DNA of 24,191 bases from a virus (lineage: Duplodnaviria > Heunggongvirae > Uroviricota > Caudoviricetes), in the IMG/VR virus record IMGVR_UViG_2734482770_000005, positions 1-24,191 of that record; one strand, given 5' to 3'. The notes beneath the pieces were generated by a model. It ran no database searches. It was not told the origin of the DNA and saw only the letters and a program-made list of their open reading frames with translations. Numbering within the stretch: the stretch's first letter is position 1; every line of letters starts with the position of its first letter. Made by a program: the position numbers and the translations under genes. Positions 8,014 to 24,191 of the stretch are shown in pieces.

Positions 8014-8211
8014 ATGAATACAGAAAACCCACAATCCTTTATTCTTAAGGCTGTAAAAGAACTGGCAGCTATTAGCGAGGAATCAGTTATAAACACATCG
8101 GCGCTTTGCCGCCTTTTAGAAATTGATGCAAATAATGTGCGCCAGCGTGTCTTTCAGACTGGGTGCAGCACTTTCGAAGCAATTCAATACTATTGCTCTA
8201 AAAAACAATAA
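8014..8211 (+). CDS. hypothetical small protein (65 aa)
   Basis: ORF in track in the gap between two larger + strand genes; weak ribosome-binding site. Confidence 0.3.
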   Translation: MNTENPQSFILKAVKELAAISEESVINTSALCRLLEIDANNVRQRVFQTGCSTFEAIQYYCSKKQ

Positions 8212-8245
8212 TAAACAACAATCATAATACAGGGAAACAATTAGC

Positions 8246-10087
8246 ATGTTAGAACTTAACGTCAGCCGCTTATCAAACGTTGTCACCTTCCAGGTTGATC
8301 GACCATCATTAGAGAAAGCAAAAGCAGAAGTAGAAAAACTTCGTAAACAAATGGCGGCGGTGAAAGATATAGAATTGCGTGTTAAGACACATAAACAATC
8401 AACTTCTAAAGCAAAAAAAGACGTAGACGATATTGCTAAAAAGCAAGCACAGGCAGATAAAGCCAATGCTAAAGCACAATTAGCCGCTCAACGTGTAGTT
8501 GCAAGAGAACAAAAAGCCCTGGCAGCACGCAAAGAGAAGGCAGACTTAAAACTGTTAGACGTTGGATCAAGCATTAGTGCATTGCACCGCCTTTCTGTAG
8601 CGGAACAATATAAAGCTATTGCACAGGCTAGAGAAATTGCCCTCCAATATGAAAGAGGAGCTATTAGTCTGGCACGTATGAATAGCCAAATGAAACGCCT
8701 ACAACAGCAACAACGTAAGATTAATGGCAATCGTAACGCTCACGCTAAAGCCTATGCACCTGTTAAGGGTAGCGGGAGTATTGGCGGCGGTGCTGCGGCT
8801 GTTATGCTGGGTGGCTTAGGCGCTGGCGCTACGTATATGGCTATGAGCAAAGCCTCTGAATTTGTTACTAACAGCTTTGCGAATGCTGAAACGCTGGGTG
8901 AATTGTATAGCCGTGCGAAGCTGGGCGGTGTAGACGTTAACCAGATGAACAATATTGAGCAATGGGCCTACAAAAACGGCGTTGATTCAATGATGGGGGA
9001 TCAAGGTAAACGTAAGTATCTCGATCAGATGAAAGATGTGCGTGAGCGTGCAACCAAAAGCTATGATGAGGCTGAATATGTAGTCGATAAAAAAACAGGC
9101 AAAGGTGAATGGAAGGGCGGCGATAGCGGCATCAATACTTTAATGAATGAAGGATTCTTAACTAAAAAGGATCTAAAAGACTTTGCTGATAATCCGGCTG
9201 GTCTGGTTAGTAAAGCAGTTCAGGGAATGGTGAAGAAAGGCTATTCAGATGCACAAATCGGTAGTCGTCTGGAAGATCTGGCTGATGATTTGATGCTCAC
9301 CTCTAAATACTGGACACGCTCCGCTAAAGAAGTGGAACAATCAGCACGAGAACAACGAGAATCAGGGCGCTGGGTAACACAGGCACAACAGGAAAGCGTT
9401 ATTAAATTCCGTGAACTGAATAATGCACTTAGTGGGCTTTCTGACTCACAAGGGATCGCCTTTGTTGATGGCTTTATGAAATCTCTTGATCCGAAAGTGA
9501 TTGAAGAGTTTAAAAAGAGCATGGTTGCAATGCTGCCAATGTTTACCAAATTAGGCGAGGCTATCGGCGGATTGGTTAACGCCGTAATGAAAACAATCAA
9601 CTGGCTGATGAAAAACGACGAGAAGACGGAAGCTATTCAGAAGAATTTAGGGGATGCACCGCCACTATCTAACGAAGGAATGAAGCAGAATCTTTCTAAT
9701 CTCACTCCTGATCAATATAAAGGCGCTGGCACCGGAACAACTAAGCCAGATAACAGCAATTCCCTGGTTAACACTATTAAAAGCTGGTTTATGCCAGAAG
9801 AAACGGTAGGTGGGGCGCAGGCTGTAAATCAATACAGTCTCGAAGGACAAAACATTGCAAATCTGAAACAGAGTGCAGCACAACAAGCTTTCAAGGCTCC
9901 TTCTTACACCTTTGCACCTGTTATTAACTTCAATCCAGAATTACAAGTAAATGCAGAAGTGCCGCTAACTATCGAATCAGACACCGGACGATTGAGCGAA
10001 TTTATCGACTTCAAATCAAAGGCATCCTCCGCTGAGTTTAGCAAGCTATTAACGCTGGGTGTTATGTCAGGCGGGTCAACCTATTAA
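8246..10087 (+). CDS. large coiled-coil protein with Gly/Ala-rich hydrophobic segment (613 aa); tape-measure-like or membrane-associated structural protein
   Basis: N-terminal 150 aa are Lys/Ala/Gln/Glu-rich heptad-like sequence (EKAKAEVEKLRKQMAAVK..., KAQLAAQRVVAREQKALAARKEKADLK); then GSGSIGGGAAAVMLGGLGAGATYMAM, a glycine-zipper-like hydrophobic stretch. Confidence 0.6.
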   Translation: MLELNVSRLSNVVTFQVDRPSLEKAKAEVEKLRKQMAAVKDIELRVKTHKQSTSKAKKDVDDIAKKQAQADKANAKAQLAAQRVVAREQKALAARKEKADLKLLDVGSSISALHRLSVAEQYKAIAQAREIALQYERGAISLARMNSQMKRLQQQQRKINGNRNAHAKAYAPVKGSGSIGGGAAAVMLGGLGAGATYMAMSKASEFVTNSFANAETLGELYSRAKLGGVDVNQMNNIEQWAYKNGVDSMMGDQGKRKYLDQMKDVRERATKSYDEAEYVVDKKTGKGEWKGGDSGINTLMNEGFLTKKDLKDFADNPAGLVSKAVQGMVKKGYSDAQIGSRLEDLADDLMLTSKYWTRSAKEVEQSAREQRESGRWVTQAQQESVIKFRELNNALSGLSDSQGIAFVDGFMKSLDPKVIEEFKKSMVAMLPMFTKLGEAIGGLVNAVMKTINWLMKNDEKTEAIQKNLGDAPPLSNEGMKQNLSNLTPDQYKGAGTGTTKPDNSNSLVNTIKSWFMPEETVGGAQAVNQYSLEGQNIANLKQSAAQQAFKAPSYTFAPVINFNPELQVNAEVPLTIESDTGRLSEFIDFKSKASSAEFSKLLTLGVMSGGSTY

Positions 10088-10134: not shown

Positions 10135-10812
10135 ATGGCAATGGGTCCGTTAACCATTGGTCGCCCGACTGAGGCGAAAATCAACAGCACAAGCAACGAT
10201 AGCAACGGTAGAACAACCAAAGGGGGTAACGGCTTTGCGATCATTACCTCTAATCTCGGCAGTGGTGCAAATGCTGCTTACAATGACTACCAGGCATTAT
10301 CATTTGATAGCGTGGAATCGACGAAAGTTAGCAGAAATGCGGACGTTACAAGCTATGCCGTCGAATCAGGATCAGAAGTTAGTGATCATGTTCAAATACG
10401 GAATAACAAGTTCACATTACAAGGGCGTATCTCTGAAACCGTATTGAAGCTCAATCCTGATATGATTAAGAATGCTGGAATTAACGGCAATCGACGTATG
10501 CTTATGCTTGAATACCTAAATCAGTTGATGGACAGTCGCCAACCTTTCCTACTTGTCACTGAGTTAAAAAATTATGACAACGTTGTGTTAGTTGGCATGT
10601 CTTACGAAGAAGAAGCAAGCGAAAGCCTATTGTTTACTCTTGATTTTGAGCAAATCCGTCTTGTCTCTAAAGCAACTACAAGCGCAATTGCGGTAAAAAC
10701 AGCACCAAATAAATCTGTAGGAGGCCAGGTTAAAATGCAGGTAAATACAACAGAACAGAAAAATCAAAAAAGCCCAGGGCAAGACGTTGTAACGCCAGTA
10801 TTTAAACAATAG
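10135..10812 (+). CDS. hypothetical protein (225 aa)
   Basis: aagga ribosome-binding site; follows the 613 aa gene after a short hairpin-containing gap. Confidence 0.55.
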   Translation: MAMGPLTIGRPTEAKINSTSNDSNGRTTKGGNGFAIITSNLGSGANAAYNDYQALSFDSVESTKVSRNADVTSYAVESGSEVSDHVQIRNNKFTLQGRISETVLKLNPDMIKNAGINGNRRMLMLEYLNQLMDSRQPFLLVTELKNYDNVVLVGMSYEEEASESLLFTLDFEQIRLVSKATTSAIAVKTAPNKSVGGQVKMQVNTTEQKNQKSPGQDVVTPVFKQ

Positions 10813-10892: not shown

Positions 10893-12257
10893 CTATAGCG
10901 TTGTTTTACGCCTTAAATTTGATTTTTTATTGATTGATAAGCCTTTCTCTATTTCAGGGTAGCGTAAAAGCTCAATATATTTTTTAAGCTCTATTGGAGA
11001 AGCTGCATTTTTGCTATATGTGCGGAATGTTTCTGTATTGCCGCGTGTATGGCCCAGGAGAAGGGCGATCCTGTCTTCTGGAATTTGATTTCGATCAAGA
11101 AGCTGTGCTACTCCGTGTCTCAGAGAATGAAACACTTTCCTTTCTGTTCCCTTTTCCCCTAAAGCCTTTCGTTTAGCTCTTGTAAATCGTTGTGTATGCC
11201 ACGTAGAGCGTTTACCGTCAGCACGTTCTGTAATGCTGGCGTGATAGAACAAAAAGCCATTGTGAGGCTTTTCACGCAGCGACAACACCAACGGAGTGAT
11301 AAGGTTATGCACAGGCACAACACGTGCCGCAGCTTTCGTCTTTCCCTGTGTGATTTCAAAACACAGCACACCTTCGATCTCTTTCACATCGTCTATTGTG
11401 AGACTTGCTATCTCATTGATCCGCATACCTGTATATAAACCGATAAGACACAAAGCCGTCATTTCTTTGTTTTCTGCTGAATTACCGGAAAATACTTGCA
11501 ACACCTGCAATAGCTCTTTGTTAGAAAATGCCTCGTAGCTCTCTCTACTTTGTGCCACATCAAGCCTATGCCCTCGCCAGGGGGAGAGCGCCCTTTCTGG
11601 CGCATCGTGGTAACGTGATGAAGCTAATTCCCATAGCTGGGCCATTGGACTGATATAATTTGCAATTGATTGTTGTGAAAGAGTTTTTTGCATGTGTTCA
11701 ATCCAGCCTGTAACAGTGGTGCGGCTTACATCTTGCAATGCAATATCAGGCTTTTTACGGTAGGAGAGAAACATCTCTACCGCTTTTCTTGCCTTAGCTA
11801 AAGTGGCTGGCTTCTTCTTCGTGCTGTTAATTGTCAGGTAGATTTCAAGAATTTTAAGCAATGACGGACACGAAGACGCTGTATCTTGCACTCTGGTAGC
11901 TGTTTTGGCGTATTTAGCCTTACTGCGTAACAGTTCCAGCGTGTTTTCTATTGTGCTGTTTACAGGGGCAACACTCTCCCGTAAGCAATGGTATTCATCT
12001 GCAATCTGATCACGCTTTCTACGTGCAACACGAAGATTACTTGTGTGTAGACTTCTGACAAACGTCCTTTTTCCTTCAAAAAAGGGCTGCATATACACAG
12101 GCAGCGTGATCCTTAAATAGTAGTTACCGTAAGAATCACAGATTAAGTATTGGTTAGGCTTGTATCTCATAAAATCTCCGGCTAAAGTGTCGGAGCGTTT
12201 GTAATGTGAAAATTGATTGTGACGCATAGAAAATGATGATTTTTCTATAAGATTCAA
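10893..12257 (-). CDS. tyrosine recombinase / phage-type integrase (454 aa)
   Basis: C-terminal catalytic region carries integrase signatures: GMRINEIASLTIDDV, HSLRHGVAQLL (H-x-x-R box) and LLGHTRGNTETFRTYSKN (tyrosine nucleophile region). Confidence 0.8.
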   Translation of the reverse strand: MNLIEKSSFSMRHNQFSHYKRSDTLAGDFMRYKPNQYLICDSYGNYYLRITLPVYMQPFFEGKRTFVRSLHTSNLRVARRKRDQIADEYHCLRESVAPVNSTIENTLELLRSKAKYAKTATRVQDTASSCPSLLKILEIYLTINSTKKKPATLAKARKAVEMFLSYRKKPDIALQDVSRTTVTGWIEHMQKTLSQQSIANYISPMAQLWELASSRYHDAPERALSPWRGHRLDVAQSRESYEAFSNKELLQVLQVFSGNSAENKEMTALCLIGLYTGMRINEIASLTIDDVKEIEGVLCFEITQGKTKAAARVVPVHNLITPLVLSLREKPHNGFLFYHASITERADGKRSTWHTQRFTRAKRKALGEKGTERKVFHSLRHGVAQLLDRNQIPEDRIALLLGHTRGNTETFRTYSKNAASPIELKKYIELLRYPEIEKGLSINKKSNLRRKTTL

Positions 12258-12314
12258 TCAATTAGTAATGGTCGTAGGTGATGGCATTAACACGAGATTA
12301 ATCGAGTGTTTTAC

Positions 12315-12332
12315 TCCTATTATCGGCACCAT
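12315..12332. repeat. candidate attL core of the P4-like element (direct repeat of 23639-23655)
   Basis: tcctattatcggcaccat here matches tcctattatcgcaccat at 23639-23655 with one 1-nt indel; both copies sit at the expected outer edges (int side and crr side). Confidence 0.4.
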
Positions 12333-12495
12333 CTCCACTTCTTCAAACATCCGTATTTATCCATAACCGCACTGTTTTATAAAAGATTTTTTGTTTTTAC
12401 TGTTCGTATTAGTCCATAACTTTCCAGTAGAATCCAGTACTAAATGTGTATAGGATTATGTATATGTTCCTGTTCGATTTTGGAATTCTATACAC

Positions 12496-13680
12496 ATGCC
12501 CCTAAATGATATGCAGATTCGCCGTGCTAAACCTGAAGCTAAAGCCTATACACTTGGGGATGGGCAAGGGTTGTCTTTACTTGTAGAGCCAAATGGAAGT
12601 AAAAGCTGGCGATTTCGTTATCGCTATGCCGGTAAACCCAAAATGATCTCGCTTGGTGTTTACCCAACGATCACTCTTGCTGATGCTCGTTCCCGTCGTG
12701 ATGAAGCTCGAAAACTTGTGGCAGAAGGAAAGAACCCTAGTGAGGTTCGAAAAGAGCAAAAGCTGGCTCTGCAAACAGAGTCAGAGAACGCCTTCGAAAA
12801 GATAGCCAGAGAGTGGCATCAACAGAAGTCTACCAAATGGTCGGCGGGATATGCATCAGACATCATGGAAGCGTTTAAGAACGACATTTTTCCTTATGTG
12901 GGAACAAGGCCAGTGGGAGAGATTAAACCGCTAGAACTGCTTAATGTGCTGCGTAAAATCGAAAAGCGCGGTGCATTAGAAAAAATGCGCAAAGTTCGGC
13001 AGCGATGCTCAGAAGTTTTCCGCTATGCCATTGCTACTGGAAGGGCTGAGTTTAACCCTGCTGCGGATCTTTCAAGCGCCCTCAATGTACACCAATCAAA
13101 TCATTTCCCGTTCTTAAAGGCTAATGAGATACCTGATTTTCTTCGCGCCTTAAACGGATATACCGGAAGTCGGCTTGTCCTGATTGCCACGAAATTGCTC
13201 ATGATTACAGGTGTTAGAACCATCGAATTACGTGCGGCATTATGGTCAGAATTTGATTTAGATAACGCTATTTGGGAAATTCCTGCTGAAAGGATGAAAA
13301 TGCGCAGATCACACCTTGTGCCTTTGTCGACTCAAGCGTTAGATTTGCTAAATGAACTCAAGATGATGACAGGGAAGTATAGTTATGTTTTTCCGGGGCG
13401 GAACGATCCGAACAAGCCTATGAGTGAGGCGAGTATTAACCAAGTTATCAAGCGTATTGGTTATGGTGGAAAACTTACTGGTCATGGATTTCGACATTCC
13501 TTATCTACTATCCTCCACGAAAAAGGATATGATTCGGCTTGGATAGAAATACAGCTTGCTCATATAGATAAGAATAATATTAGAGGTACGTATAATCATG
13601 CTCAATATATTGATAAACGCCGTGATATGATGCAGTGGTATTCAGATTATATTTTTATTAAGGAGAATGTGAATGAGTAA
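12496..13680 (+). CDS. int: P4-type tyrosine integrase (394 aa)
   Basis: N-terminal arm-binding region typical of P4/CP4-57 integrases (MQIRRAKPEAKAYTLGDGQGLSLLVEPNGSKSWRFRYRYAGK); C-terminal catalytic motifs HGFRHSLSTIL and LAHIDKNNIRGTYNHAQYIDKRRDMMQWY. Confidence 0.9.
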   Translation: MPLNDMQIRRAKPEAKAYTLGDGQGLSLLVEPNGSKSWRFRYRYAGKPKMISLGVYPTITLADARSRRDEARKLVAEGKNPSEVRKEQKLALQTESENAFEKIAREWHQQKSTKWSAGYASDIMEAFKNDIFPYVGTRPVGEIKPLELLNVLRKIEKRGALEKMRKVRQRCSEVFRYAIATGRAEFNPAADLSSALNVHQSNHFPFLKANEIPDFLRALNGYTGSRLVLIATKLLMITGVRTIELRAALWSEFDLDNAIWEIPAERMKMRRSHLVPLSTQALDLLNELKMMTGKYSYVFPGRNDPNKPMSEASINQVIKRIGYGGKLTGHGFRHSLSTILHEKGYDSAWIEIQLAHIDKNNIRGTYNHAQYIDKRRDMMQWYSDYIFIKENVNE

Positions 13681-15301
13681 CGAGTTTGATAGTAGTAAAC
13701 TAGAAAATTGCTTTGAGCTTGCATTGGAAAATATTATAAAGCACGGCGATACAGATATTTTCCCTTACCCATTTGAAAGTCGGTTATTTGAAGATGATAA
13801 GGAGAAAGTAAAAACTGCATTAATGCAAACATTTAATGACTTTGAAAATAAAAGGATCGAGATTCCACCAAACATAATTAATAGCTTTTCAAGTATTGGT
13901 TATTATGGTTACAGGTGGGCGACCCAAATTGATCCATTCTGGAATGCTTTTTTTCTTGGGTTAGTTTTAAAAATCGCTGATGATATTGAAAGGAATAGAT
14001 CTACTAAAACGCAGGTTTATTCATATCGCTTTAAACCAAACCTTGCTGATGGTTCTCTTTTTGATAAAGAGATCTCTTGGAGAAAATATCAAGAAGACAG
14101 TATCTCTGAATGTTCTAACGATGAAATAAAGTATGTACTTACATGCGATATAGCAGATTTCTATCCGCGTATTTATCACCACCGTTTAGAAAATGCGTTA
14201 GATAGAGTCGACCCCAATAAAGATTACTCTGGGAAAATCAAGAAATTACTACAGACATTTAGTGAAACAAAATCATATGGAGTACCAGTTGGATGTCCTG
14301 CCTCTAGAATATTAGCAGAACTAGCTCTAGATTCTATTGATAAATTATTGTCTATGAATAGAATCAACTATAAGCGTTATGTCGACGACTTTGTTATTTT
14401 TTGTAACTCTAGAGAGGATGCTCATAAGATTTTAACTTTGCTTAGTAAAAAACTGATGGAAAATGAAGGGCTAACTTTACAGAAACAAAAAACCAATATT
14501 GTTACTAAAGAAGAGTTCCTTTCAGTAACTAAAGCTAAGTTGCATGGTAATGATGAAGATGAAGAATCTCCTATGAAGGCTAAATTTATGAGTCTTCCTA
14601 TAAGATTCGATCCTTACTCAGCAAATGCGATAGAGGAATATGAAGAGATAAAGGAATCTTTAAAAGATTTTGACTTGTTAGCTATGCTGAGTAGTGAGTT
14701 ACAAAAATCAAAAATTAACCAATCTTTTAGCAAGCATTTGATAAAGGCATTCTCAGCAACATCAGATGAAATAATAAGTAGTGCTTTCAAAGTAATGTTT
14801 AATAACTTGCATGAGTTATATCCAATATTTACAACTATAATTCAAGTAGCTAACTCCAACTGGCAAAAATTAAGCACAGAAACCAAAGATATTATTCTTG
14901 ATAAAATAACTGCACTAATTAAACAAGATTCATATATTTTGAGTACTGAGCTCAACTTAGCCTATGTAGCCCGAATGCTCTCAAAAGAAAATTCAGAAAA
15001 ATCCACCCTAATCCTTAGTGAAATATACAATAACAATCCAGAAAGCATCTTAGTCAAGAACATAGTTACACAGTCAATGGCAAAAATTAATTCTTACGCA
15101 TGGCTTTCTGATATCAAAAAAAATTTCTCTGCAATGCATCCGTTGCAGAGAAGACTATTGATCGTTTCCAGTTACATCTTAGGTGATGAAGGACGGCACT
15201 GGAGAGAGCATAATAAGAAAACATTCAACTTTGTAGAGGTGATTTACAGGGATTGGGCAAGTAAAAGGCATACCGCAAGAAATCTTGAGGATGCGCTATG
15301 A
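13673..15301 (+). CDS. reverse transcriptase (542 aa) with helical C-terminal extension; non-retron, non-intron defence-type RT suspected
   Basis: RT motif A CDIADFYPRIYHH, motif B SYGVPVGCPASRILAELALDSID, motif C with catalytic YVDD (YKRYVDDFVIF). Start overlaps the int stop by 8 nt with aagga ribosome-binding site. GC is visibly lower than in neighbouring P4 genes. Confidence 0.85.
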   Translation: MSNEFDSSKLENCFELALENIIKHGDTDIFPYPFESRLFEDDKEKVKTALMQTFNDFENKRIEIPPNIINSFSSIGYYGYRWATQIDPFWNAFFLGLVLKIADDIERNRSTKTQVYSYRFKPNLADGSLFDKEISWRKYQEDSISECSNDEIKYVLTCDIADFYPRIYHHRLENALDRVDPNKDYSGKIKKLLQTFSETKSYGVPVGCPASRILAELALDSIDKLLSMNRINYKRYVDDFVIFCNSREDAHKILTLLSKKLMENEGLTLQKQKTNIVTKEEFLSVTKAKLHGNDEDEESPMKAKFMSLPIRFDPYSANAIEEYEEIKESLKDFDLLAMLSSELQKSKINQSFSKHLIKAFSATSDEIISSAFKVMFNNLHELYPIFTTIIQVANSNWQKLSTETKDIILDKITALIKQDSYILSTELNLAYVARMLSKENSEKSTLILSEIYNNNPESILVKNIVTQSMAKINSYAWLSDIKKNFSAMHPLQRRLLIVSSYILGDEGRHWREHNKKTFNFVEVIYRDWASKRHTARNLEDAL

Positions 15302-16038
15302 TATCTGAATTAACGTTTTCTCGAAAATTCACTTCATTTTGGAATCAATTGCTTCCAAATGCTAATAATTTCATACGCATCATTAACGGCAGTCTCATCG
15401 AGGACGTTTATCCTCCTCTAGATGACTGCGCTAATAGGTCAAATAACGTCTTTGTTAATGAGTGCGCATTTAATTTATATAGGGCAATACAGAATGATTC
15501 GTTAGACAGAAATATTCTTTCAGCACATGATATCTTCCATAATGCTGATTTTCAGGTTGTTTTTGAAAAAACAAAAGAATATCTACAGCGGTTCGCTTAC
15601 GGTTCTAACTTCAAGCTACCCTTAAGCATGGTTGAGTACAATGCCATAAGGGAAATAGCAAGAAACATTTTGTCTCGATATGGAATGGAAAACCAAATTG
15701 AAGTGTCTCCACAATTCGATGGATGCGGAGTAATAAATAATTCATATGGCGATATTTATTATTCAAATGTTCTTGTGGAAATAAAATCAGGAGATAGGAA
15801 GTTTAGTGTTTACGATCTTAGACAGGTGCTAATATATTTCACTTTAAACTTTTACTCAAAAAACAAAAGAAACATCAAGAGATTTGAGCTTTTCAATCCT
15901 CGGATGGGTATCACTTATAGTGATACCATTGTCAACCTTTGCAAAGAGTTGGCGTTTATTCAACCTGAAGAATTGTACTTTGAGATAATGAATTCTATTA
16001 CAGAAGAAAATTTCATAGTAACTGAAATGCAACGCTAG
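15298..16038 (+). CDS. RT-associated accessory protein (246 aa), putative effector; function unknown
   Basis: ATGA start/stop overlap with the RT gene (translational coupling). Soluble, no obvious transmembrane segment. Weak motifs: R-x5-H (DRNILSAHD) and D-x11-E-x-K (GDIYYSNVLVEIK). Confidence 0.6.
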   Translation: MISELTFSRKFTSFWNQLLPNANNFIRIINGSLIEDVYPPLDDCANRSNNVFVNECAFNLYRAIQNDSLDRNILSAHDIFHNADFQVVFEKTKEYLQRFAYGSNFKLPLSMVEYNAIREIARNILSRYGMENQIEVSPQFDGCGVINNSYGDIYYSNVLVEIKSGDRKFSVYDLRQVLIYFTLNFYSKNKRNIKRFELFNPRMGITYSDTIVNLCKELAFIQPEELYFEIMNSITEENFIVTEMQR

Positions 16039-16047
16039 ATATCATGC

Positions 16048-16075
16048 AGACCGCTACAATCCATTGTAGTGGTCT
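16048..16075 (+). terminator. stem-loop just after the accessory gene stop, possible terminator or RNA structure
   Basis: agaccgctacaat cc attgtagtggtct gives a 13-bp stem with one G-U pair, 10 nt after the TAG stop, followed by atttct. Confidence 0.35.
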
Positions 16076-16157
16076 ATTTCTAAACGTTCCTTCTGACGAA
16101 TAAAGCCAAAATACCAAATAGAATTAAAGAAAATTATAATATCAGCCTTAGCGCGCA

Positions 16158-16176
16158 ATGCTCCCCCCGCCACGCC
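16158..16176. other. cos: candidate cos site (P2/P4-type 19-nt cohesive end sequence)
   Basis: Minus-strand reading of 16158-16176 is GGCGTGGCGGGGGGAGCAT, which matches the P2/P4 cohesive end as I recall it (GGCGAGGCGGGGAAAGCAC) at 15 of 19 positions. It sits between the cargo and psu, where cos lies in circular P4. Confidence 0.45.
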
Positions 16177-16278
16177 CGCCCGCTTTGCGGGGCGGTTTTA
16201 ATGCAGTTGCACTGACACGCTCAGACCGCGCCGGGAATGGCGCGGTCTGCAGAAAATGAGGCAGGGAAACGCATGCAA

Positions 16279-16310
16279 AGCCATGCACCTTATCGATGCA
16301 TGGCTTTTTT
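16279..16310 (+). terminator. Rho-independent terminator (+ strand orientation) before the psu 3' end
   Basis: Perfect 9-bp stem agccatgca / tgcatggct with 9-nt loop, followed by a run of five T (16306-16310). Confidence 0.55.
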
Positions 16311-16340
16311 CAGTAAAAACGGGCGGATTTTCGGGGAATT

Positions 16341-16913
16341 TTACACAGACTGACGTGATGCCAGTTGCGCACTTTTACGCGAAAAAATCATGTTCTGCGC
16401 AGGGGTGAATTTTTCACGGCTGTCATCCACCGAAGCCGCGTCAGGCCTGAATCCGATGGTCGTTAAAATGTCGCTATCCTGTGCGGAATAATTAATTTTT
16501 TCCCCCTTCGCAAGCCAGGACAGAAGGGCTTCACGCAGGGCATCTGTGGCACGCTGTATGGCACAGTTTCGGGCAATGGCCGTCAGCTCACTGTAGCCCA
16601 TCAGCTCCGGTGCCAGTGCGGCCGCCAGTACTGTGCCGTGCTGCTGCATAAAATCATTCAGCCGGTCGCGGATGCTGATGTGCTGAACGGCTTCATGCGA
16701 ACGAATATAACGACCGGCGGCCTGATTCACCTGCCATTTTCTGACTTCGATAATATTGCGTAATTCGTCCAGGCGGCTGACGTTTCTGCCTTCTCCTGAC
16801 AGAAGCCGCAGATATTCCTGTTCGGCCGCTGCCAGCTCATTTTTGCGTTGCAGCCATGCTGCTTTGTTATTCTGACAGGTGTCAAAGGCCTGCTGTAAGG
16901 CTGTGCTTTCCAT
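16341..16913 (-). CDS. psu: P4 Psu (polarity suppression / capsid decoration protein), 190 aa
   Basis: 190 aa, the P4 Psu length; the sequence MESTALQQAFDTCQNNKAAWLQRKNELAAAEQEY... matches P4 Psu as I recall it; position immediately 5' of delta and sid on the same strand. Confidence 0.8.
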   Translation of the reverse strand: MESTALQQAFDTCQNNKAAWLQRKNELAAAEQEYLRLLSGEGRNVSRLDELRNIIEVRKWQVNQAAGRYIRSHEAVQHISIRDRLNDFMQQHGTVLAAALAPELMGYSELTAIARNCAIQRATDALREALLSWLAKGEKINYSAQDSDILTTIGFRPDAASVDDSREKFTPAQNMIFSRKSAQLASRQSV

Positions 16914-16986
16914 CGTTATCTCTTTCTCATCATGCTGAAGAATAAAAATACGGTGTGCGGCGACGGCCGGTGTTAACCGGCAGCCC

Positions 16987-17487
16987 TCATTCCAGACGCA
17001 GCGAATATGATTGTGTTTTTAAGCGTACTGGCGGCAGTTCCTGTTTTTCATGCAGGCTTTCTGCCAGTTCGTCCGGCGTGACCGGGCGGACAATGAAGCG
17101 GTTGATGGTCTGAAGCGTTTTAAACACCAGACCACAGCCCGGATCCGTGCACACATAAAAACGCTCGGTGACTTCCTGAGACAGACGCCGCGATGTTCTT
17201 GACAGTGCAAGGCCTTTACATCTCCGACAACAATATCCGGTAACAAGCATTCTTTTCGGGCGTTTCATACTGCCGGAGGCTGACGTCAGTGAATCGCGGT
17301 ATCTCTGTTTGCCTGAAATGTATTCCATTCCTGAATCTTTACAGTCAGAGAAAAAGCTTTCACTCGCTTCAAATGTCGCAGAGCAATAAATATTCCGGCA
17401 CTGTGCAATCATTATCTTGGTGCCATCGTCCATGAAATGTGCGCGACGGGTGTGAGCAACATGTCCACACGACGGGCAGTAAATCAT
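16987..17487 (-). CDS. delta: P4 Delta late-gene activator (Ogr/Delta zinc-finger family), 166 aa
   Basis: Two Cys-rich Ogr-like modules (CPSCGHVAH...CRNIYC and CCRRCKG...CTDPGC); 166 aa as in P4 Delta; overlaps the sid stop by 4 nt. Confidence 0.85.
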   Translation of the reverse strand: MIYCPSCGHVAHTRRAHFMDDGTKIMIAQCRNIYCSATFEASESFFSDCKDSGMEYISGKQRYRDSLTSASGSMKRPKRMLVTGYCCRRCKGLALSRTSRRLSQEVTERFYVCTDPGCGLVFKTLQTINRFIVRPVTPDELAESLHEKQELPPVRLKTQSYSLRLE

Positions 17488-18218
17488 GACAGCAGTCCTC
17501 TGGCCTTAAGCTCTGCTCCCTGCTGGTCTATTTTGTCCTGCCACACCTTGCGCTGTGCCGGTGTGCCTGCCACCTCATAATCCATGTGCGGGAGTGTTGC
17601 CGCTGACAGTCCGGTCAGCCGGAGAACCGGCTCGCCGGTGAGGCTGATTTGCATCTGTTTTATTTTCTGTTCCAGCGATGATTTCACCTGCTGCATGACA
17701 GCTTTATCGGGTGCGACGTAGCCCTGATGGCCGGTGGTGTTGGCGAGCGGATTTTCCTGTACCAGGATGCTCAGATGCATTGCCCGGACAAGCGCCTCAC
17801 AGGTTTCATTCAGGGCGTGTTCCAGCTCATTCTCTGCATACAGACTCAGAAGGTGATGATGTGCCTTCCGGTAGGCGGTGGCCGTGCTGTCACACGCCCC
17901 TTTCAGGCGTTCACGTTCAAAATTCAGCACCACGGCCAGATTGTCATATTCCTGTACCAGCTCCCGGCGTGCCACGCGCTCAATGTGGCGCTGTTTCAGC
18001 TCGTCGCTCAGGACACCACCGGCTGCACGAAAGGCCGTGCGCCAGTCGTCAGCGTCGTTTCCGTCGGCCTGCGCCAGCGCATTTTTTTCCTGCTCTGCCC
18101 GTTCAATGGCCGTGACGGTCTCATCCATCAGGCGGGCGTTCTCAAGATGGGCGGCTCTGGCCTTTTCCAGTTGTGCCAGCGCGGGTTGCAGATATTCAGG
18201 GATGGTGTTGTCAGACAT
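17484..18218 (-). CDS. sid: P4 Sid (capsid size determination external scaffold), 244 aa from MSDNTIPEY
   Basis: The track ORF 17484-18284 extends upstream of the likely start; the ATG at 18218 is preceded by aggagccggaaa and gives 244 aa (the P4 Sid length as I recall it). The protein is largely helical and coiled-coil-like. Confidence 0.8.
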   Translation of the reverse strand: MSDNTIPEYLQPALAQLEKARAAHLENARLMDETVTAIERAEQEKNALAQADGNDADDWRTAFRAAGGVLSDELKQRHIERVARRELVQEYDNLAVVLNFERERLKGACDSTATAYRKAHHHLLSLYAENELEHALNETCEALVRAMHLSILVQENPLANTTGHQGYVAPDKAVMQQVKSSLEQKIKQMQISLTGEPVLRLTGLSAATLPHMDYEVAGTPAQRKVWQDKIDQQGAELKARGLLS

Positions 18219-18290
18219 TTTCCGGCTCCTCGTCACTTCAGGTTGAGAAAATTGTGACGTACACCGGACAACAACACGACGCATTGCAGA

Positions 18291-18308
18291 TGTGCCAGCC
18301 CTGACACA
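18291..18308 (-). promoter_or_regulatory. candidate Delta/Ogr-responsive late promoter element (Psid) with dyad symmetry
   Basis: TGTGCCAG CC CTGACACA is an imperfect dyad of the TGT-N-ACA type about 75-90 bp upstream of the sid start, where P2/P4 late promoters carry their activator-binding dyad. Confidence 0.35.
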
Positions 18309-18387
18309 GGAGACTCATCCTCAGACCGGCAAGCCAGGAAAAGGTCGCAGGAAAAAACGGCTTACTGTTTGTTTTTTTATATTTTAC

Positions 18388-18491
18388 TGTTCACCTCTGT
18401 TCACCATAAGAAAAAAGATAAGTAATACAGTAAGTTAAAGGGTGAACAATCGCAGTAATGACTGTTCACCGTCTGTTCACCACTGTTCACC
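18388..18491. repeat. cluster of TGTTCACC octamer iterons (5 direct, 1 inverted), candidate alpha-binding replication element (ori-like)
   Basis: tgttcacc at 18388, 18398, 18463, 18474 and 18484; ggtgaaca (inverted) at 18441. The same octamer recurs in the crr-like repeats at 23219-23525. Confidence 0.6.
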
Positions 18492-18769
18492 CGTTGATGG
18501 GCTTTTTATGCTGTTTATTACTGTTTATTTTTATTAATTCACTGAAATAAATAAGAAAAAACAATTTGCATTTCACTATAAAAAATTCCAGGTCCTTCAG
18601 AACCCTTTGAGACCCTTCCAGTCCAGATGGATAAAAAACACACAGCCATTGTAAGGCTGCCGGAACAAATCCCCCCTGTTGCGTCTGCCAAAAATATTCA
18701 CAAAATAAAGCGCTACCCGAAGCCGGACGGACTTATCCGGTGCTGTATGGACATTAACGAGGTAGCCCG

Positions 18770-19036
18770 ATGCAAGCTGTTTTTTCTTCCCCGTCTCCTG
18801 CCCCTGTGACGCCACTGATGCCGCTGCCGGACATCACGCAGGAGCGTTTTTTACGTCTGCCGGAAGTGATGCACCTGTGCGGCCTGTCACGCTCGACCAT
18901 CTATGAACTCATCCGTAAGGGGGAATTTCCGCCGCAGGTGAGCCTTGGCGGTAAAAATGTGGCCTGGCTGCACTCTGAAGTCACTGCATGGATGGCCGGG
19001 CGCATTGCCGGACGCAAACGGGGGTACGACGCATGA
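18770..19036 (+). CDS. AlpA/Vis-family small transcriptional regulator (88 aa; alternative start at 18815, MPLPDITQ...)
   Basis: Typical AlpA-family sequence: [47 protein letters not shown]. Confidence 0.75.
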
Positions 19037-19130
19037 TGATGCCCGCTCTGCAAAAAGTCCCTTTTTCTGGCTTGCCTTTTTCCGGCATTTGCGGATATAG
19101 TTTTTCCGCTGCCGCAAAATCGGCAGCCGG

Positions 19131-19422
19131 GCGTGAGAACCCGGGCAATCTAACGGCGACATATGACGCGCCATGCGTCTTTTTTTGTGTCGCAATCAAC
19201 GCCACAGAGCGCCAGATTATGGTGTGGTGTGTGGTCAGTCGTGCAGATGGCACTCCGTGCATCCTGCCCGCGTCCGCTCATTATGCCGCAGAGTCAATGG
19301 TAGCTCAGGCGGGGCAGCCTCCGGGCTGGCCGGTATCCGTTAGAGCCGGTATTCTCACCCCCGTCTGGGCTATCGCCATCGAGCGTGAGAACTCCGGCGA
19401 TAGCGTAACCTGCTATCTAACG
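19131..19422 (+). ncRNA. putative P4-type immunity-RNA region (seqA / seqB / seqC-like arrangement)
   Basis: Direct repeats gcgtgagaacccgggcaatctaacgg (19131-19156) and gcgtgagaactccggcga...ctatctaacgg (19383-19422) flank ccgttagagccgg (19337-19349), which is complementary to the ccggc...tctaacgg part of both repeats. No well-supported protein ORF covers the interval. Confidence 0.3.
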
Positions 19423-19435
19423 GAGGCTGCCATCA

Positions 19436-19632
19436 TGGCTACAACCCTTACCCCCTCACACCCTGAATTTGTCTTTGTGTTTGCCGCTGTCCGTCGCGCA
19501 GACCGCCATCCCCGTATCTGTATGCTTCGCACCGTCGCCGGTGATGAACGCAGCGCCCGCCGTTCCCTTGTCCGTGACTATGTGCTCTCCCTTGCTGCCC
19601 GTCTGCCGGTTGTGGAGGTGTCCCGTGCGTAA
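19436..19632 (+). CDS. hypothetical small protein (65 aa) in the P4 left-operon region
   Basis: ATG at 19436 preceded by ggagg; in frame with track ORF 18988-19632, whose upstream part looks like a GC-rich spurious extension. Confidence 0.3.
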
Positions 19633-19912
19633 TAAAAAAGCCCCTCAGACCGTCTCAGCGCGTCATGACGCCCGTGAACACCTCAGCATTGAGGCTTACC
19701 ATAAGCTCAACCGCGCCAGCGCCGTATCCCAGTTTGTTGGGGGTGATTTGATTCACCGTGAACTCTCCGGCCTGCATCAGCTCTACATTCCGCATATTTT
19801 CAGTTACCTGAATGAAGATATTGATTTTGTGCTGAATGAACTGAAAGCCAAAGGCCTGTGCCGCGATTTTCTCGCCCAGCAGAAAGACCGGGGAGACAGG
19901 ACGCATGTTTGA
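19626..19912 (+). CDS. hypothetical small protein (95 aa, GTG start), possibly epsilon-like
   Basis: ggaggtg ribosome-binding site 5 nt before GTG at 19626; in frame with the 3' part of track ORF 19469-19912. Confidence 0.4.
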
Positions 19913-20360
19913 TTTTCCCCAGCCCGGTGAGATTTACCGTTCTGCCGGTTTTCCCGATGTGGCCGTGGTCGGCATTCTGGAAGACGGTATTCCGTGGGAA
20001 ATGCCGTACCGCTGCCCGGAAATTGTCTGGAACCCGTACCGCCGTAAATTCAGTATCCTTGTGCGTATCCTCGCCGACGGGCGCACCACAGACATCCCGC
20101 TGGGGCGTTTTCTGCGGGAATTTACCTGTGACCGTCCTGACCTGTTCAAACGCAGCCCCGTAAACCGGCATGCGGTACTGAAAGAAATGGCCGGAGACCC
20201 GGAATTACAGAAATGGCGGGAGAAATATCTGGATATTTACCCGCAGGACCCTGTTCCGGTCAGCCGGGCGGCACCGGTGGCGCGGGAATGGCGGGAAATT
20301 CCCCGCACGGAGCCTGACCCGGAAATCACCCCGGATAACAGTTACCGCAATTATCTGTAA
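19905..20360 (+). CDS. hypothetical P4-family protein (151 aa, same size as P4 orf151)
   Basis: Coherent ORF with start overlapping the previous stop; lies between the regulator region and alpha as in P4. Confidence 0.55.
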   Translation: MFDFPQPGEIYRSAGFPDVAVVGILEDGIPWEMPYRCPEIVWNPYRRKFSILVRILADGRTTDIPLGRFLREFTCDRPDLFKRSPVNRHAVLKEMAGDPELQKWREKYLDIYPQDPVPVSRAAPVAREWREIPRTEPDPEITPDNSYRNYL

Positions 20361-20495
20361 TTAAAAAACGACACCCGAAAAATTAAATGTGCGTATTCGC
20401 GCAGGGATACGCACGTCTTCAGGAGACGCAGATATGCCTTATCAGTTAATGCAACCGGCACGGAATGCAGTCATCTGTCACAGGGAGGAAAGCAA

Positions 20496-20816
20496 ATGAA
20501 AACACCCTTACCGCCCGTCTTACGCGCTGCCCTTTACCGTCGCGCTGTCGCCTGTGCCTGGCTGACCGTGTGCGAACGTCAGCACCGCTATCCGCATCTC
20601 ACCCTTGAGTCACTGGAGGCGGCCATCGCCGCTGAGCTGGAGGGCTTTTATCTGCGCCAGCACGGTGAGGAAAAAGGGCGTCAGATAGCCTGTGCCCTGC
20701 TGGAAGATTTAATGGAATCCGGCCCCCTGAAGGCCGCGCCGTCGCTGTCCTTTCTCGGGCTGGTTGTGATGGATGAACTCTGTGCCCGTCACATAAAAGC
20801 GCCGGTACTGCACTGA
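20496..20816 (+). CDS. hypothetical P4-family protein (106 aa) immediately upstream of alpha
   Basis: Ribosome-binding site gggagg 7 nt before ATG; ends 15 nt before the alpha start. Confidence 0.55.
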
Positions 20817-20830
20817 AGGAGAACAACACC

Positions 20831-23164
20831 ATGAAAATGAACGTAACCGCCACCGTCAGCCATGCGCTCGGCCACTGGCCGCGTATTCTCCCGGCGCTGG
20901 GGATTCCGGTGCTGAAAAACCGTCATCAGCCCTGTCCGGTCTGTGGCGGGAGTGACCGCTTCCGTTTTGATGACAGGGAGGGGCGCGGCACCTGGTACTG
21001 CAATCAGTGTGGTGCCGGTGACGGCCTGAAACTGGTTGAAAAGGTGTTTGGTGTTTCCCCGTCCGATGCGGCCGCAAAGGTGGCTGCCGTGACCGGCAGC
21101 CTGCCACAGGCTGACCCGGCAGTGACGGCCGCCGCCGGTGCTGAAACAGACGCTGCCCGGAAGAACGCCGCCGCACTGGCACAAACCCTGATGGCAAAAA
21201 CCCGTCCCGGAACCGGTAACGCCTACCTGACCCGCAAGGGCTTTCCCGGCCGGGAATGCCGGATGCTGACCGGCACACACAGAGCCGGTGGCGTGAGCTG
21301 GCGTGCCGGTGACCTTGTGGTGCCACTGTATGACGACAGCGGCGAACTGGTTAACCTTCAGTTAATCAGTGCTGACGGCCGTAAGCGCACCCTGAAAGGC
21401 GGACAGGTCAGGGGCACCTGTCACACCCTTGAAGGACAGAATCAGGCCGGAAAACGTCTGTGGATAGCGGAGGGATACGCGACCGCACTTACCGTGCATC
21501 ACCTGACCGGTGAAACGGTGATGGTGGCGCTTTCTTCCGTGAACCTCCTTTCTCTGGCCAGCCTTGCCCGGCAGAAGCATCCGGCCTGTCAGATTGTCCT
21601 TGCCGCAGACCGTGACCTCAGCGGTGACGGCCAGAAAAAAGCCGCCGCAGCCGCAGATGCGTGTGAGGGCGTTGTTGCCCTGCCGCCGGTCTTCGGTGAC
21701 TGGAATGATGCCTTCACGCAGTACGGCGGGGAGGCCACCCGTAAGGCCATTTACGATGCCATCCGGCCACCGGCTGAAAGCCCGTTCGACACCATGAGCG
21801 AAGCAGAGTTTTCCGCCATGAGTACCAGCGAAAAGGCCATGCGTATCTATGAGCATTACGGCGAGGCGCTCGCGGTCGATGCCAACGGCCAGCTTCTGTC
21901 CCGTTATGAAAATGGTGTCTGGAAGGTGCTGCCGCCACAGGACTTTGCCCGGGATGTGGCCGGGCTGTTTCAGCGTCTGCGCGCGCCGTTCTCCTCCGGG
22001 AAGGTGGCCTCCGTGGTGGACACCCTGAAGCTGATTATTCCGCAGCAGGAAGCCCCCTCCCGCCGCCTGATTGGCTTTCGTAACGGCGTGCTCGACACGC
22101 AGAACGGTACGTTCCACCCACACAGTCCGTCACACTGGATGCGCACCCTGTGCGATGTGGATTTCACCCCGCCGGTGGACGGTGAAACGCTGGAAACCCA
22201 CGCCCCCGCGTTCTGGCGCTGGCTTGACCGTGCCGCCGGTGGCCGTGCGGAAAAACGCGACGTGATTCTGGCCGCACTGTTTATGGTGCTGGCAAACCGC
22301 TACGACTGGCAGCTCTTTCTGGAGGTGACCGGTCCCGGCGGCAGCGGCAAAAGTATCATGGCCGAAATAGCCACCCTGCTGGCCGGGGAGGATAACGCCA
22401 CGTCGGCCACCATTGAGACGCTGGAATCCCCGCGTGAACGTGCCGCGTTAACTGGCTTCTCACTGATACGCCTGCCGGACCAGGAAAAATGGAGCGGCGA
22501 CGGTGCCGGACTCAAGGCCATCACCGGCGGCGATGCGGTGTCCGTGGACCCGAAATACCGGGATGCGTACTCCACGCATATCCCGGCGGTGATTCTGGCC
22601 GTGAACAATAACCCGATGCGCTTCACCGACCGCAGCGGCGGCGTGTCACGCCGGCGGGTGATTATTCACTTCCCGGAACAGATAGCCCCGCAGGAGCGCG
22701 ACCCGCAGCTTAAGGACAAAATCACCCGCGAGCTGGCGGTCATCGTGCGTCACCTGATGCAGAAGTTCAGCGACCCGATGCTCGCCCGGTCACTGCTTCA
22801 GTCCCAGCAGAACTCAGACGAGGCGCTGAACATCAAACGGGATGCCGACCCGACGTTTGATTTTATCGGCTATCTGGAAACCCTGCCGCAGACCAGCGGC
22901 ATGTATATGGGGAACGCCAGTATCATCCCGCGTAATTACCGTAAATACCTCTATCACGCCTATCTGGCCTACATGGAGGCAAACGGCTACCGGAACGTAC
23001 TCAGTCTGAAAATGTTCGGGCTGGGGCTACCGGTGATGCTGAAGGAATACGGACTGAATTACGAGAAGCGCCATACCAAACAGGGGATACAGACCAACCT
23101 GACGCTGAAAGAGGAAAGCTACGGCGACTGGCTGCCAAAATGTGACGACCCTGCAACAACCTGA
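20831..23164 (+). CDS. alpha: P4 alpha-type primase-helicase replication protein (777 aa)
   Basis: N-terminal zinc-binding CPVCGG...YCNQCG; central primase region; Walker A P-loop TGPGGSGKS; 777 aa as in P4 alpha; ggaga ribosome-binding site upstream. Confidence 0.9.
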   Translation: MKMNVTATVSHALGHWPRILPALGIPVLKNRHQPCPVCGGSDRFRFDDREGRGTWYCNQCGAGDGLKLVEKVFGVSPSDAAAKVAAVTGSLPQADPAVTAAAGAETDAARKNAAALAQTLMAKTRPGTGNAYLTRKGFPGRECRMLTGTHRAGGVSWRAGDLVVPLYDDSGELVNLQLISADGRKRTLKGGQVRGTCHTLEGQNQAGKRLWIAEGYATALTVHHLTGETVMVALSSVNLLSLASLARQKHPACQIVLAADRDLSGDGQKKAAAAADACEGVVALPPVFGDWNDAFTQYGGEATRKAIYDAIRPPAESPFDTMSEAEFSAMSTSEKAMRIYEHYGEALAVDANGQLLSRYENGVWKVLPPQDFARDVAGLFQRLRAPFSSGKVASVVDTLKLIIPQQEAPSRRLIGFRNGVLDTQNGTFHPHSPSHWMRTLCDVDFTPPVDGETLETHAPAFWRWLDRAAGGRAEKRDVILAALFMVLANRYDWQLFLEVTGPGGSGKSIMAEIATLLAGEDNATSATIETLESPRERAALTGFSLIRLPDQEKWSGDGAGLKAITGGDAVSVDPKYRDAYSTHIPAVILAVNNNPMRFTDRSGGVSRRRVIIHFPEQIAPQERDPQLKDKITRELAVIVRHLMQKFSDPMLARSLLQSQQNSDEALNIKRDADPTFDFIGYLETLPQTSGMYMGNASIIPRNYRKYLYHAYLAYMEANGYRNVLSLKMFGLGLPVMLKEYGLNYEKRHTKQGIQTNLTLKEESYGDWLPKCDDPATT

Positions 23165-23180
23165 CCCTCATAACTCATCT

Positions 23181-23204
23181 GACCGGCATCTGCCGGTCTT
23201 TTTT
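23181..23204 (+). terminator. Rho-independent terminator of the alpha operon
   Basis: gaccggca tc tgccggtc inverted repeat followed by tttttt (23199-23204), 17 nt after the alpha stop. Confidence 0.65.
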
Positions 23205-23218
23205 CATCCCTGAATCCC

Positions 23219-23525
23219 CCGAAGGTGAACAATCCACTGTTCACCCTTCACCGTATATTCACCCGTTATCACACTGAAATTAAAAGAGAAAAACGAAAGG
23301 TGAACAGTGTGAACAATCAAATCAAAAAAAACTTTTTTCTTCCTGAGTGATTTCAGTGCGGAGGATTAATCACCGGTATGAGTCACACCGGCAGAATGCC
23401 GGAGGTGAAGAATCGAATGTTCACCCTTCACCCATTATTCACCACCTATCACACTGAAAGAAAAGGAGAAAATCAAAGGGTGAACAGTGTGAACAGTTCT
23501 TTCGAAAAAAAACTTTTTTCTTATT
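23219..23525. repeat. crr: crr-like replication element: two about 125 bp direct repeats, each with TGTTCACC/GGTGAACA octamers
   Basis: Repeat 1 about 23219-23343 and repeat 2 about 23399-23524 (offset about 180 bp) share aggtgaa..atgttcacccttcacc..attcacc..tatcacactgaaa..ggtgaacagtgtgaaca..aaaaaaacttttttctt. Two about 120 bp direct repeats with iterons is the described P4 crr organisation. Confidence 0.65.
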
Positions 23526-23638
23526 TTTAATTGTGCGAAAAACAAGCGATGCGCGCAGTGTGTATAGATATGTGTATAGTTATATTTTTTGAATATAATA
23601 ATCTATTATAAATCAATGTCTTAACTTTTAATATTCAT

Positions 23639-23655
23639 TCCTATTATCGCACCAT
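23639..23655. repeat. candidate attR core of the P4-like element (direct repeat of 12315-12332)
   Basis: tcctattatcgcaccat; see the attL entry. Lies between crr and the chromosomal LysR gene. Confidence 0.4.
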
Positions 23656-23780
23656 TTAAATCAATAAGTTACCCCATATTTAAATACACCACGTTTCCTC
23701 CTGTGCCGTATTTGTGCCATTGTAACCCTGGCAATTCATCAAAATACTGTTCTGACATCAGGCAATGCAGGTGCAGACAT

Positions 23781-24191
23781 TTAAGCCAATTGCTGCCGCC
23801 ATTCCTTGACGTGGTCAATCAGGGCGCGGAGCTTTGGTGCAATATTGCGACGCTGTGGGAAATACAGATAGAAGCCTGGAAATTGTGGAAGAAAGTCATC
23901 AAGCAGCGATACAAGCTTACCGCTTTCAATATATGGCCTGAAAGTTTCCTGAGTGGCAATTGTTATTCCTTCACCGACAAGAGCCAGCTGCAACATCAGA
24001 CGCAGATCATTAGTCGTAATCTGCGGTTCAATCGCAAGGTCGAAAGTTCTCCCGTTTTCTTCAAATGGCCAGCGATAAGGCGCAACCTCCGGGGACTGAC
24101 GCCAGCCGATACACTTATGGGTATTTCCCCCGGAGGCGAGAAAGCGCTCTCCACGCCCGGCCGCAAGGATCAGGACGACGGGGGCAGGCAT
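23781..24191 (-). CDS. LysR-family transcriptional regulator, C-terminal substrate-binding part (gene continues beyond the window end)
   Basis: Translation reads like a LysR effector-binding domain (LILAAGRGERFLA..., LRLMLQLALVGEGITIATQETFRPYIESGKLVSLLDDF). Higher GC and no mobile-element features, so probably host flank. Confidence 0.6.
   Translation of the reverse strand: MPAPVVLILAAGRGERFLASGGNTHKCIGWRQSPEVAPYRWPFEENGRTFDLAIEPQITTNDLRLMLQLALVGEGITIATQETFRPYIESGKLVSLLDDFLPQFPGFYLYFPQRRNIAPKLRALIDHVKEWRQQLA

Follow-up and report, generated by a model that had tools for sequence, protein, structure and literature searches.

A P4-type immunity region with its own b-box allele in a P4-like satellite prophage

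Between positions 19131 and 19422 of the window (the whole 24,191-nucleotide stretch that was analysed), two direct repeats enclose a short segment that is complementary to the core they share, and this arrangement raises the question of what kind of element the interval encodes. The preliminary description, made from the letters alone, had read it as a P4-type immunity RNA in an interval lacking a convincing protein gene. Here we find that the region is, with high probability, the immunity region of a P4-like satellite prophage, working as it does in phage P4, and that a long open reading frame nevertheless runs through it.

Identity of the region and of the prophage

The assignment to P4 is borne out by sequence identity, gene order and RNA family models. 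When the interval was aligned base by base with the P4 cI / seqA-seqB-seqC region, as the preliminary description had proposed, window 18990-19650 proved 98% identical to P4 (X51522) over 661 bases, gapless. The top BLAST match among phage genomes is phage P4 (96.3% over 1076 bases), and the homology to P4 spans window 16177-23519 at 97.7%. Three Rfam families (C4, in clan CL00128, isrK and c4-a1b1) score above their curated gathering thresholds, all on the plus strand: the C4 antisense RNA (RF01695, 19293-19380, 74.5 bits, full length, gathering 45), isrK (RF01394, 19108-19185, 72.1 bits, full length including the terminator, gathering 50) and c4-a1b1 (RF03163, 19095-19147, 49.3 bits, gathering 46.7). 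C4 is the database name for the CI RNA of P4, and isrK and c4-a1b1 are homologues of seqA (PMC3632133; PMC4825925).

The genes follow the order known from P4, with psu, delta and sid (minus strand) followed by vis/orf88, eta/kil, epsilon, orf151, orf106 and alpha, all of them intact. The immunity region sits between vis and its neighbouring promoter PLE on one side and kil-epsilon-orf151-alpha on the other, and sid-delta-psu is divergent. The vis gene (orf88, 18770..19036, plus strand) is an 88-aa ORF that aligns with P4 ORF88 and encodes a regulator annotated as AlpA family in E. coli. Every testable feature of the P4 immunity family was found here. The kind of system is already known and can be detected with Rfam; the sole particular feature at this locus is the b-box allele described below. 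Of 5426 complete E. coli genomes, 1053 have the immunity region, in roughly 1250 copies altogether and with 2-4 copies in some of them.

Taken as a whole, the prophage carries int, a DRT8 defence cassette, psu, delta, sid, vis, eta/kil, epsilon, orf151 and alpha. In E. coli strain 10035210-2, a prophage adjoining tRNA-Thr has the gene order of P4 and matches window 12313-24191 at 99.975% identity. The homology to that strain begins at 12313, with the last 19 nt of tRNA-Thr (12313-12331), and ARAGORN detects no tRNA in the window. To the left of 12313 lies a separate island that encodes an integrase (10896-12257, minus strand, Phage_integrase and DUF6538) of its own and a Dit-like tail protein (10135-10809), and two integrative elements are therefore apparently arranged in tandem at tRNA-Thr. 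The hotspot between int and psu (13673-16035) is occupied by a DRT8-type defence cassette comprising a 542-aa reverse transcriptase (PADLOC Drt8 551.9 bits; Pfam RVT_1) and a 246-aa RT-associated PD-(D/E)XK nuclease (230.3 bits). The mechanical ORF of sid (17484-18284, minus strand) has 266 aa and the protein in P4 and in the RefSeq annotation 244 aa, a difference that probably reflects the choice of start codon.

The Rfam names C4 and c4-a1b1 recall a different family of elements, and one alternative is that a different kind of element has borrowed an immI module of P1/P7 type, with its c4 RNA control of icd-ant, and that the module is not of P4 type. The P1-like phages D6, RCS47 and JL22 do match window 19289-19474 at 72-74%, and kil is Icd-like. 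This origin is nonetheless highly improbable, as identity to P4 is 98% versus about 73% to the P1-like phages, and P4 has the same downstream genes, epsilon, orf151, orf106 and alpha. Membership of the P1/P7 immI operon itself, whose c4 RNA acts on icd and the antirepressor gene ant, was rejected: the Icd-like kil is present and ant is absent.

Repeats, leader RNA and pairing

Both direct repeats of the preliminary description are real, with the end of the second lying one base further on than the 19422 given there. Repeat 1 is GCGTGAGAACCCGGGCAATCTAACGG (19131-19156) and repeat 2 is GCGTGAGAACTCCGGCGATAGCGTAACCTGCTATCTAACGG (19383-19423); in each of them, GCGTGAGAAC and TCTAACGG stand at opposite ends. 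The intervening segment CCGTTAGAGCCGG (19337-19349) had been described as complementary to the repeat core, and the repeat search and the pairing tests agree. In the repeat search the direct repeats fall into family D1 (19128-19149 / 19380-19401, 82%) and family D4 (19145-19156 / 19412-19423, 92%). The complementarity appears as inverted repeats I9, between TCTAACGG (19149-19156) and CCGTTAGA (19337-19344; 100%, 8/8), and I6, between TCCGTTAGA (19336-19344) and TCTAACGGA (19416-19424; 100%, 9/9). A second recognition box had been overlooked: GTGAGAA, present at 19133-19139 and 19385-19391, pairs with TTCTCAC (19352-19358) in the CI RNA (inverted repeats I1 and I2). We thus distinguish box a, which is GTGAGAA in seqA and seqC with TTCTCAC as its partner in CI, from box b, which is TCTAACGG with CCGTTAGA as its partner in a CI loop, and each target pairs with CI through both boxes, by 7 and by 8-9 bp. 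The duplex between the exposed CI segment and seqC reaches -31.1 kcal/mol versus -14.4 +/- 2.9 for shuffled targets (0/1000 as good), and that with seqA reaches -26.6 versus -13.6 +/- 2.9 (1/1000 as good). The pattern of repeats and complementarity exceeds chance.

Upstream of the repeats, a single sigma-70-like site was predicted in 18500-19800 (19072..19101, plus strand; TTGCCT, 18-nt spacer, TATAGT). Its sequence is identical to that in P4, and the site therefore corresponds to PLE, a promoter of constitutive type. The transcript is predicted to start near 19108, which is also where the match to the Rfam isrK model begins. The seqA region (19108..19186, plus strand), delimited by isrK, c4-a1b1 and the terminator scan, opens with hairpin 1 (19108-19127), followed by hairpin 2 (19128-19143), whose loop displays the a1 box GTGAGAA (19133-19139), the b1 box TCTAACGG (19149-19156) and a terminator-like hairpin (19165-19179) with a run of seven T (19180-19186). 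Among 49 homologues, pairing in the hairpins of the seqA region stands at 98-100%, and both hairpin 2 and the terminator show compensatory pairs.

A variable spacer separates the terminator-like hairpin region from the cI gene (19293..19380, plus strand), whose product, the CI RNA carrying seqB, fits the Rfam C4 model over its full length. The predicted fold (MFE -48.1 kcal/mol, z = -4.76) consists of a basal stem P1 of 17 bp (19298-19314 / 19359-19375), a 5-bp stem P2 (19315-19319 / 19324-19328) and a 5-bp stem P3 (19329-19333 / 19346-19350). P3 has a 12-nt loop, which holds the b' box CCGTTAGA (19337-19344); the a' box TTCTCAC (19352-19358) is found in a single-stranded junction, and a CCA tail (19376-19378) follows the acceptor-like basal stem. 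The stable CI RNA of P4 is reportedly 79 nt long (Forti et al. 1995). By analogy, about 79 nt would be expected here, corresponding to the stem 19298-19375 with a short tail, and not the roughly 70 nt of the preliminary description. The seqC target (19383..19434, plus strand) contains the a2 box GTGAGAA (19385-19391), a segment X' GGCGATAGC (19396-19404) and the b2 box TCTAACGGA (19416-19424). The Shine-Dalgarno sequence of kil, GGAGG (19422-19426), shares bases with b2, and the kil ATG is at 19435.

The pairing was examined in an alignment of the window, P4, nine E. coli variants and 39 loci of other Enterobacterales located via their Vis protein, with 49 distinct homologues entering the pairing tests. 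For the CI stems and seqA:seqB together, 100% of 2058 cells are paired, versus 32-52% when the partner is slid by one to three columns, and the covariation score is 0.437 (0.190 when shuffled), with 19 pairs altered on both sides. All 27 of the 27 CI stem pairs are 100% paired in the 49 homologues, and seven of these are altered on both sides. The seqB:seqC pairing is formed in 98.6% of cells (36-44% with the partner slid by one to three columns; covariation 0.806 versus 0.241 shuffled), and all unpaired cells trace to a single allele that is displaced by one column in the alignment.

The terminator-like hairpin with its seven T (19165-19186), directly after seqA, is near-invariant in the 49 homologues and shows one compensatory change from G-C to C-G; it is not explained by the classical P4 model. 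As CI lies downstream of it, the terminator must be leaky. A short transcript of about 79 nt ending at the T-run corresponds to the IsrK of Salmonella, and the isrK model fits the region over its full length, terminator included. The seqA transcript (19108-19186) might accordingly be a trans-acting sRNA like the IsrK of Gifsy-1, activating and not repressing translation of the downstream ORFs on the read-through transcript besides, or instead of, serving as the CI target. In Gifsy-1, short IsrK activates translation from the long isoform (PMC4825925), and TraDIS of S. Typhi found IsrK-like elements in P4-like prophages to be required (PMC3632133). Against such a role, a1 and b1 covary perfectly with CI, as predicted for a CI target, and apart from pairing by way of CI the seqA RNA showed no match to the kil leader. 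We regard it as unlikely, and take seqA as a target of the CI RNA in what follows.

Two further complementarities were noted in the leader. The segment GCTATCGCC (19369-19377), made up of the 3' strand of the CI basal stem and the CC of the CCA, is perfectly complementary to X', GGCGATAGC (19396-19404), between a2 and b2. This X:X' helix (19369-19377 / 19396-19404) is 99.3% paired in the 49 homologues, with three pairs altered on both sides, and the lower CI stem takes up the same changes by G-U wobble. The helix would show a2 in an 18-nt loop, and the transcript may adopt it as an alternative fold before processing. The first hairpin of CI, GGCAGCCTCCG (19313-19323), has perfect 11-nt complementarity to the kil Shine-Dalgarno region, CGGAGGCTGCC (19421-19431), and the MFE fold of the whole leader uses this pairing, the sequence being kept in most homologues. 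It is kept here as a putative interaction, since it is uncompensated in the two homologues (L033 and L034) in which P2 has changed. A local hairpin (19399-19404 / 19412-19417) was also not adopted, as 82% of its cells are paired, barely above the controls.

RNA and reading frame in one interval

The preliminary description had set a conserved protein ORF covering the interval against the RNA reading, and such an ORF exists. The eta ORF (19033..19632, plus strand) has 199 aa from a start coupled to vis, the vis stop and the eta start overlapping as ATGA (19033-19036); RefSeq gives the same coordinates, and the mechanical ORF begins at 18988 (214 aa). It covers seqA, cI and seqC, and its last 65 codons are kil (19435..19632, plus strand), a 65-aa Icd-like protein (NCBIfam phage_ICD_like 76.1 bits). 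Of 50 homologues, 49 have the eta frame open and none has either of the other two open. Pfam Phage_ASH matches residues 37-161 of the 214-aa form with 93.3 bits, equivalent to 19096-19470.

These observations could mean that an eta protein alone, of the Ash family or Icd-like, explains the conservation, with the repeats as internal repeats of the protein and no regulatory RNA. The frame spans the interval, the Phage_ASH match falls across exactly seqA, CI and seqC, and the RefSeq and P4 records annotate protein only. The substitutions, however, speak otherwise. In kil, the entropy at codon positions 1, 2 and 3 is 0.22, 0.21 and 0.81, a periodicity of protein type, whereas the values are 0.47, 0.42 and 0.44 in the seqA part of eta, 0.52, 0.56 and 0.56 in the CI part and 0.84, 0.87 and 0.73 in the seqC part; in the homologue alignment, codon periodicity is thus absent from these three parts of eta upstream of kil. 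The changes in the boxes are radical for the amino acids (VR versus CE), yet Watson-Crick pairing is always kept at the three sites. The Rfam covariance models match, and the immunity factor of P4 was found by experiment to be RNA (PMC4825925, PMC5499578). A purely protein-based explanation is accordingly scarcely credible.

The claim that no convincing protein gene is present is thus right in part: eta spans the interval, and codon signal is lacking upstream of kil. The RNA model stands beside the ORF: eta and RNA immunity coexist in P4, and eta upstream of kil carries no codon-position signal. Judging from its substitution pattern, the eta frame appears to be kept open while the sequence upstream of kil is constrained as RNA. 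The kil start lies in a C-rich, G-poor stretch (C/G 1.5-1.7 over 19380-19540). PMC10111431 states, citing Forti et al. 1999, that translation of P4 eta takes place solely on transcripts of the upstream late promoter and prevents termination, and that on transcripts from PLE kil comes first among the translated genes; the coexistence of ORF and RNA immunity in P4 is also given there. In public records, X51522, NC_001609 and the RefSeq E. coli genomes, the equivalent of 19033-19632 bears proteins only ("cI gene product (AA 1-137)", "transcriptional repressor", "host cell division inhibitor Icd-like protein"), and the RNA gene is unannotated although the immunity factor is RNA.

By analogy with P4, the region would work as follows. 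Transcription from the constitutive promoter PLE (19072-19101) would yield a leader from near 19108 that carries, in this order, seqA (a1, b1), the CI RNA gene and seqC (a2, b2), the last immediately 5' of kil. The CI RNA would be excised from the leader transcript, by RNase P at its 5' end and by trimming at its 3' end, and would then accumulate. Its exposed segments, b' in the hairpin loop and a' in the junction, would pair with a1/b1 and a2/b2 on new transcripts, and pairing at b2 would mask the ribosome-binding site of kil. The untranslated RNA would be subject to Rho termination, by which epsilon, orf151 and alpha (helper derepression and replication) would be kept off. Rho dependence of termination in P4 is described in older P4 papers. 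Incoming satellites of the same specificity would be repressed in the same way, giving superinfection immunity. The upstream late promoter would yield RNA on which eta, coupled to vis, is translated across the region, and this RNA would escape control. Pairing of CI with seqA and seqC, with premature termination as its consequence, is the scheme summarised for P4 (PMC4825925, PMC10111431, PMC3632133, PMC5499578). Processing of CI is known for P4 (PMC5499578), and cleavage by RNase P with 3' trimming would be expected here from the P4 literature (PMC4825925, PMC10111431, PMC5499578).

Box alleles and immunity specificity

We compared the locus with the P4 immunity region (PLE - seqA - cI/seqB - seqC - kil/eta, X51522 about 8150-8810). 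The promoter, the hairpins, the CI fold, the a box, kil, the eta frame and the flanking genes are the same in both. The b boxes differ, being TTCACAGG / CCTGTGAA in P4 and TCTAACGG / CCGTTAGA here, with 4 of 8 positions changed in all three boxes; a small linked patch (19407-19410) is also unlike P4. Twelve of the 27 differences from P4 in the 661 bases fall in the three 8-nt b boxes, four per box and all compensatory, where 0.98 would be expected (binomial P = 5e-11), and the a boxes have none. The cognate b duplexes are predicted at -11.3 (b1) and -13.5 (b2) kcal/mol, and on P4 targets at -3.3 and -4.9, and P4 CI shows the reverse. With the P3 stem opened, the full-length duplex with P4 seqC is predicted at -27.8 kcal/mol versus -31.1 for the cognate one, about 3 kcal/mol weaker.

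These calculations suggest, with moderate confidence, that the prophage is a b-box specificity variant of P4 whose immunity specificity differs from that of P4. The prediction is held at this level because the a box is shared with P4 and the full duplexes lie only about 3 kcal/mol apart if P3 opens; through the shared a box, partial cross-immunity with P4 may occur. The allele is common in E. coli: its 46-nt seqB segment is found exactly in 99 of 5426 complete genomes, and the P4 version in 206.

The 50 loci have six alleles of the a box and 12 of the b box, which occur in 24 combinations; within every locus the three sites carry matching boxes. When b loops were set against b2 targets in a cross-matrix, no loop allele had a partner better than its cognate target by more than 0.3 kcal/mol, and the near-ties concern alleles with the same core sequence in their b2 targets. 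As the boxes are interleaved (a1 b1 ... b' a' ... a2 b2), a single crossover cannot make a new combination. The pattern would imply strong diversifying selection together with some mechanism of concerted change, for which templated correction between the direct and inverted repeats is one candidate. We therefore put forward, as an idea we hold at slightly less than even confidence, that P4-like satellites carry a modular two-box RNA "immunity code" under diversifying selection for new immunity groups, with concerted change of the boxes.

Four genomes carry two P4-like immunity regions each (L005/L010, L025/L033, L034/L037 and L012/L018), and the copies differ in both boxes. A difference in both boxes is also expected in about 66% of random pairs, so that four cases are not significant; the observation is consistent with a need of co-resident copies for different immunity types.

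For this window, the result is the rediscovery, in a P4-like prophage, of an RNA repressor system known from textbooks. It corrects genome annotation in which the locus appears only as "Icd-like protein" or as a protein "repressor", and it assigns the prophage to a b-box immunity type other than that of P4. The allele table offers a simple typing of immunity groups in P4-like satellites, which are carriers of many anti-phage defence systems (here DRT8). In the large surveys of P4-like elements that we examined the CI RNA is unmentioned, and a systematic account of the box code seems to be absent from them; nor did our literature search find a description of an eta frame that is open yet constrained as RNA, or of the covarying X:X' helix. 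The wider pattern (combinatorial a/b alleles, an open ORF without protein-type constraint and the X:X' helix) may thus not have been systematically described, and it still elaborates a known principle.

Comparison with known systems

In Gifsy-1, with IsrK / STnc1160, the likeness lies in the seqA region, which here fits the isrK model over its full length, and the processed stable RNA lies downstream (PMC4825925). The short RNA of Gifsy-1 activates translation of orf45-anrP, whereas such a role in P4-like elements is only putative.

The c4 RNA of P1/P7 (immI) has the same fold, with a' and b' exposed, and its a1/b1 and a2/b2 targets likewise lie on both sides of the RNA gene. Its downstream target overlaps the start of an icd-like gene, as here, and c4 RNA is a substrate of RNase P. 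In P1/P7, however, icd-ant (antirepressor) is controlled in a plasmid prophage, and here the controlled genes would be kil-epsilon-orf151-alpha of a satellite; the DNA is about 73% identical.

The immunity region of the P4-like retronphage phiR73 is reportedly heteroimmune to P4 (Sabbattini et al. 1996). phiR73 is a natural P4-like element with a reverse-transcriptase cargo and, reportedly, altered seqA/B/C specificity. The cargo of phiR73 is retron Ec73 and its site selC, whereas the prophage described here carries a DRT8-type reverse transcriptase with a PD-(D/E)XK nuclease and lies at tRNA-Thr.
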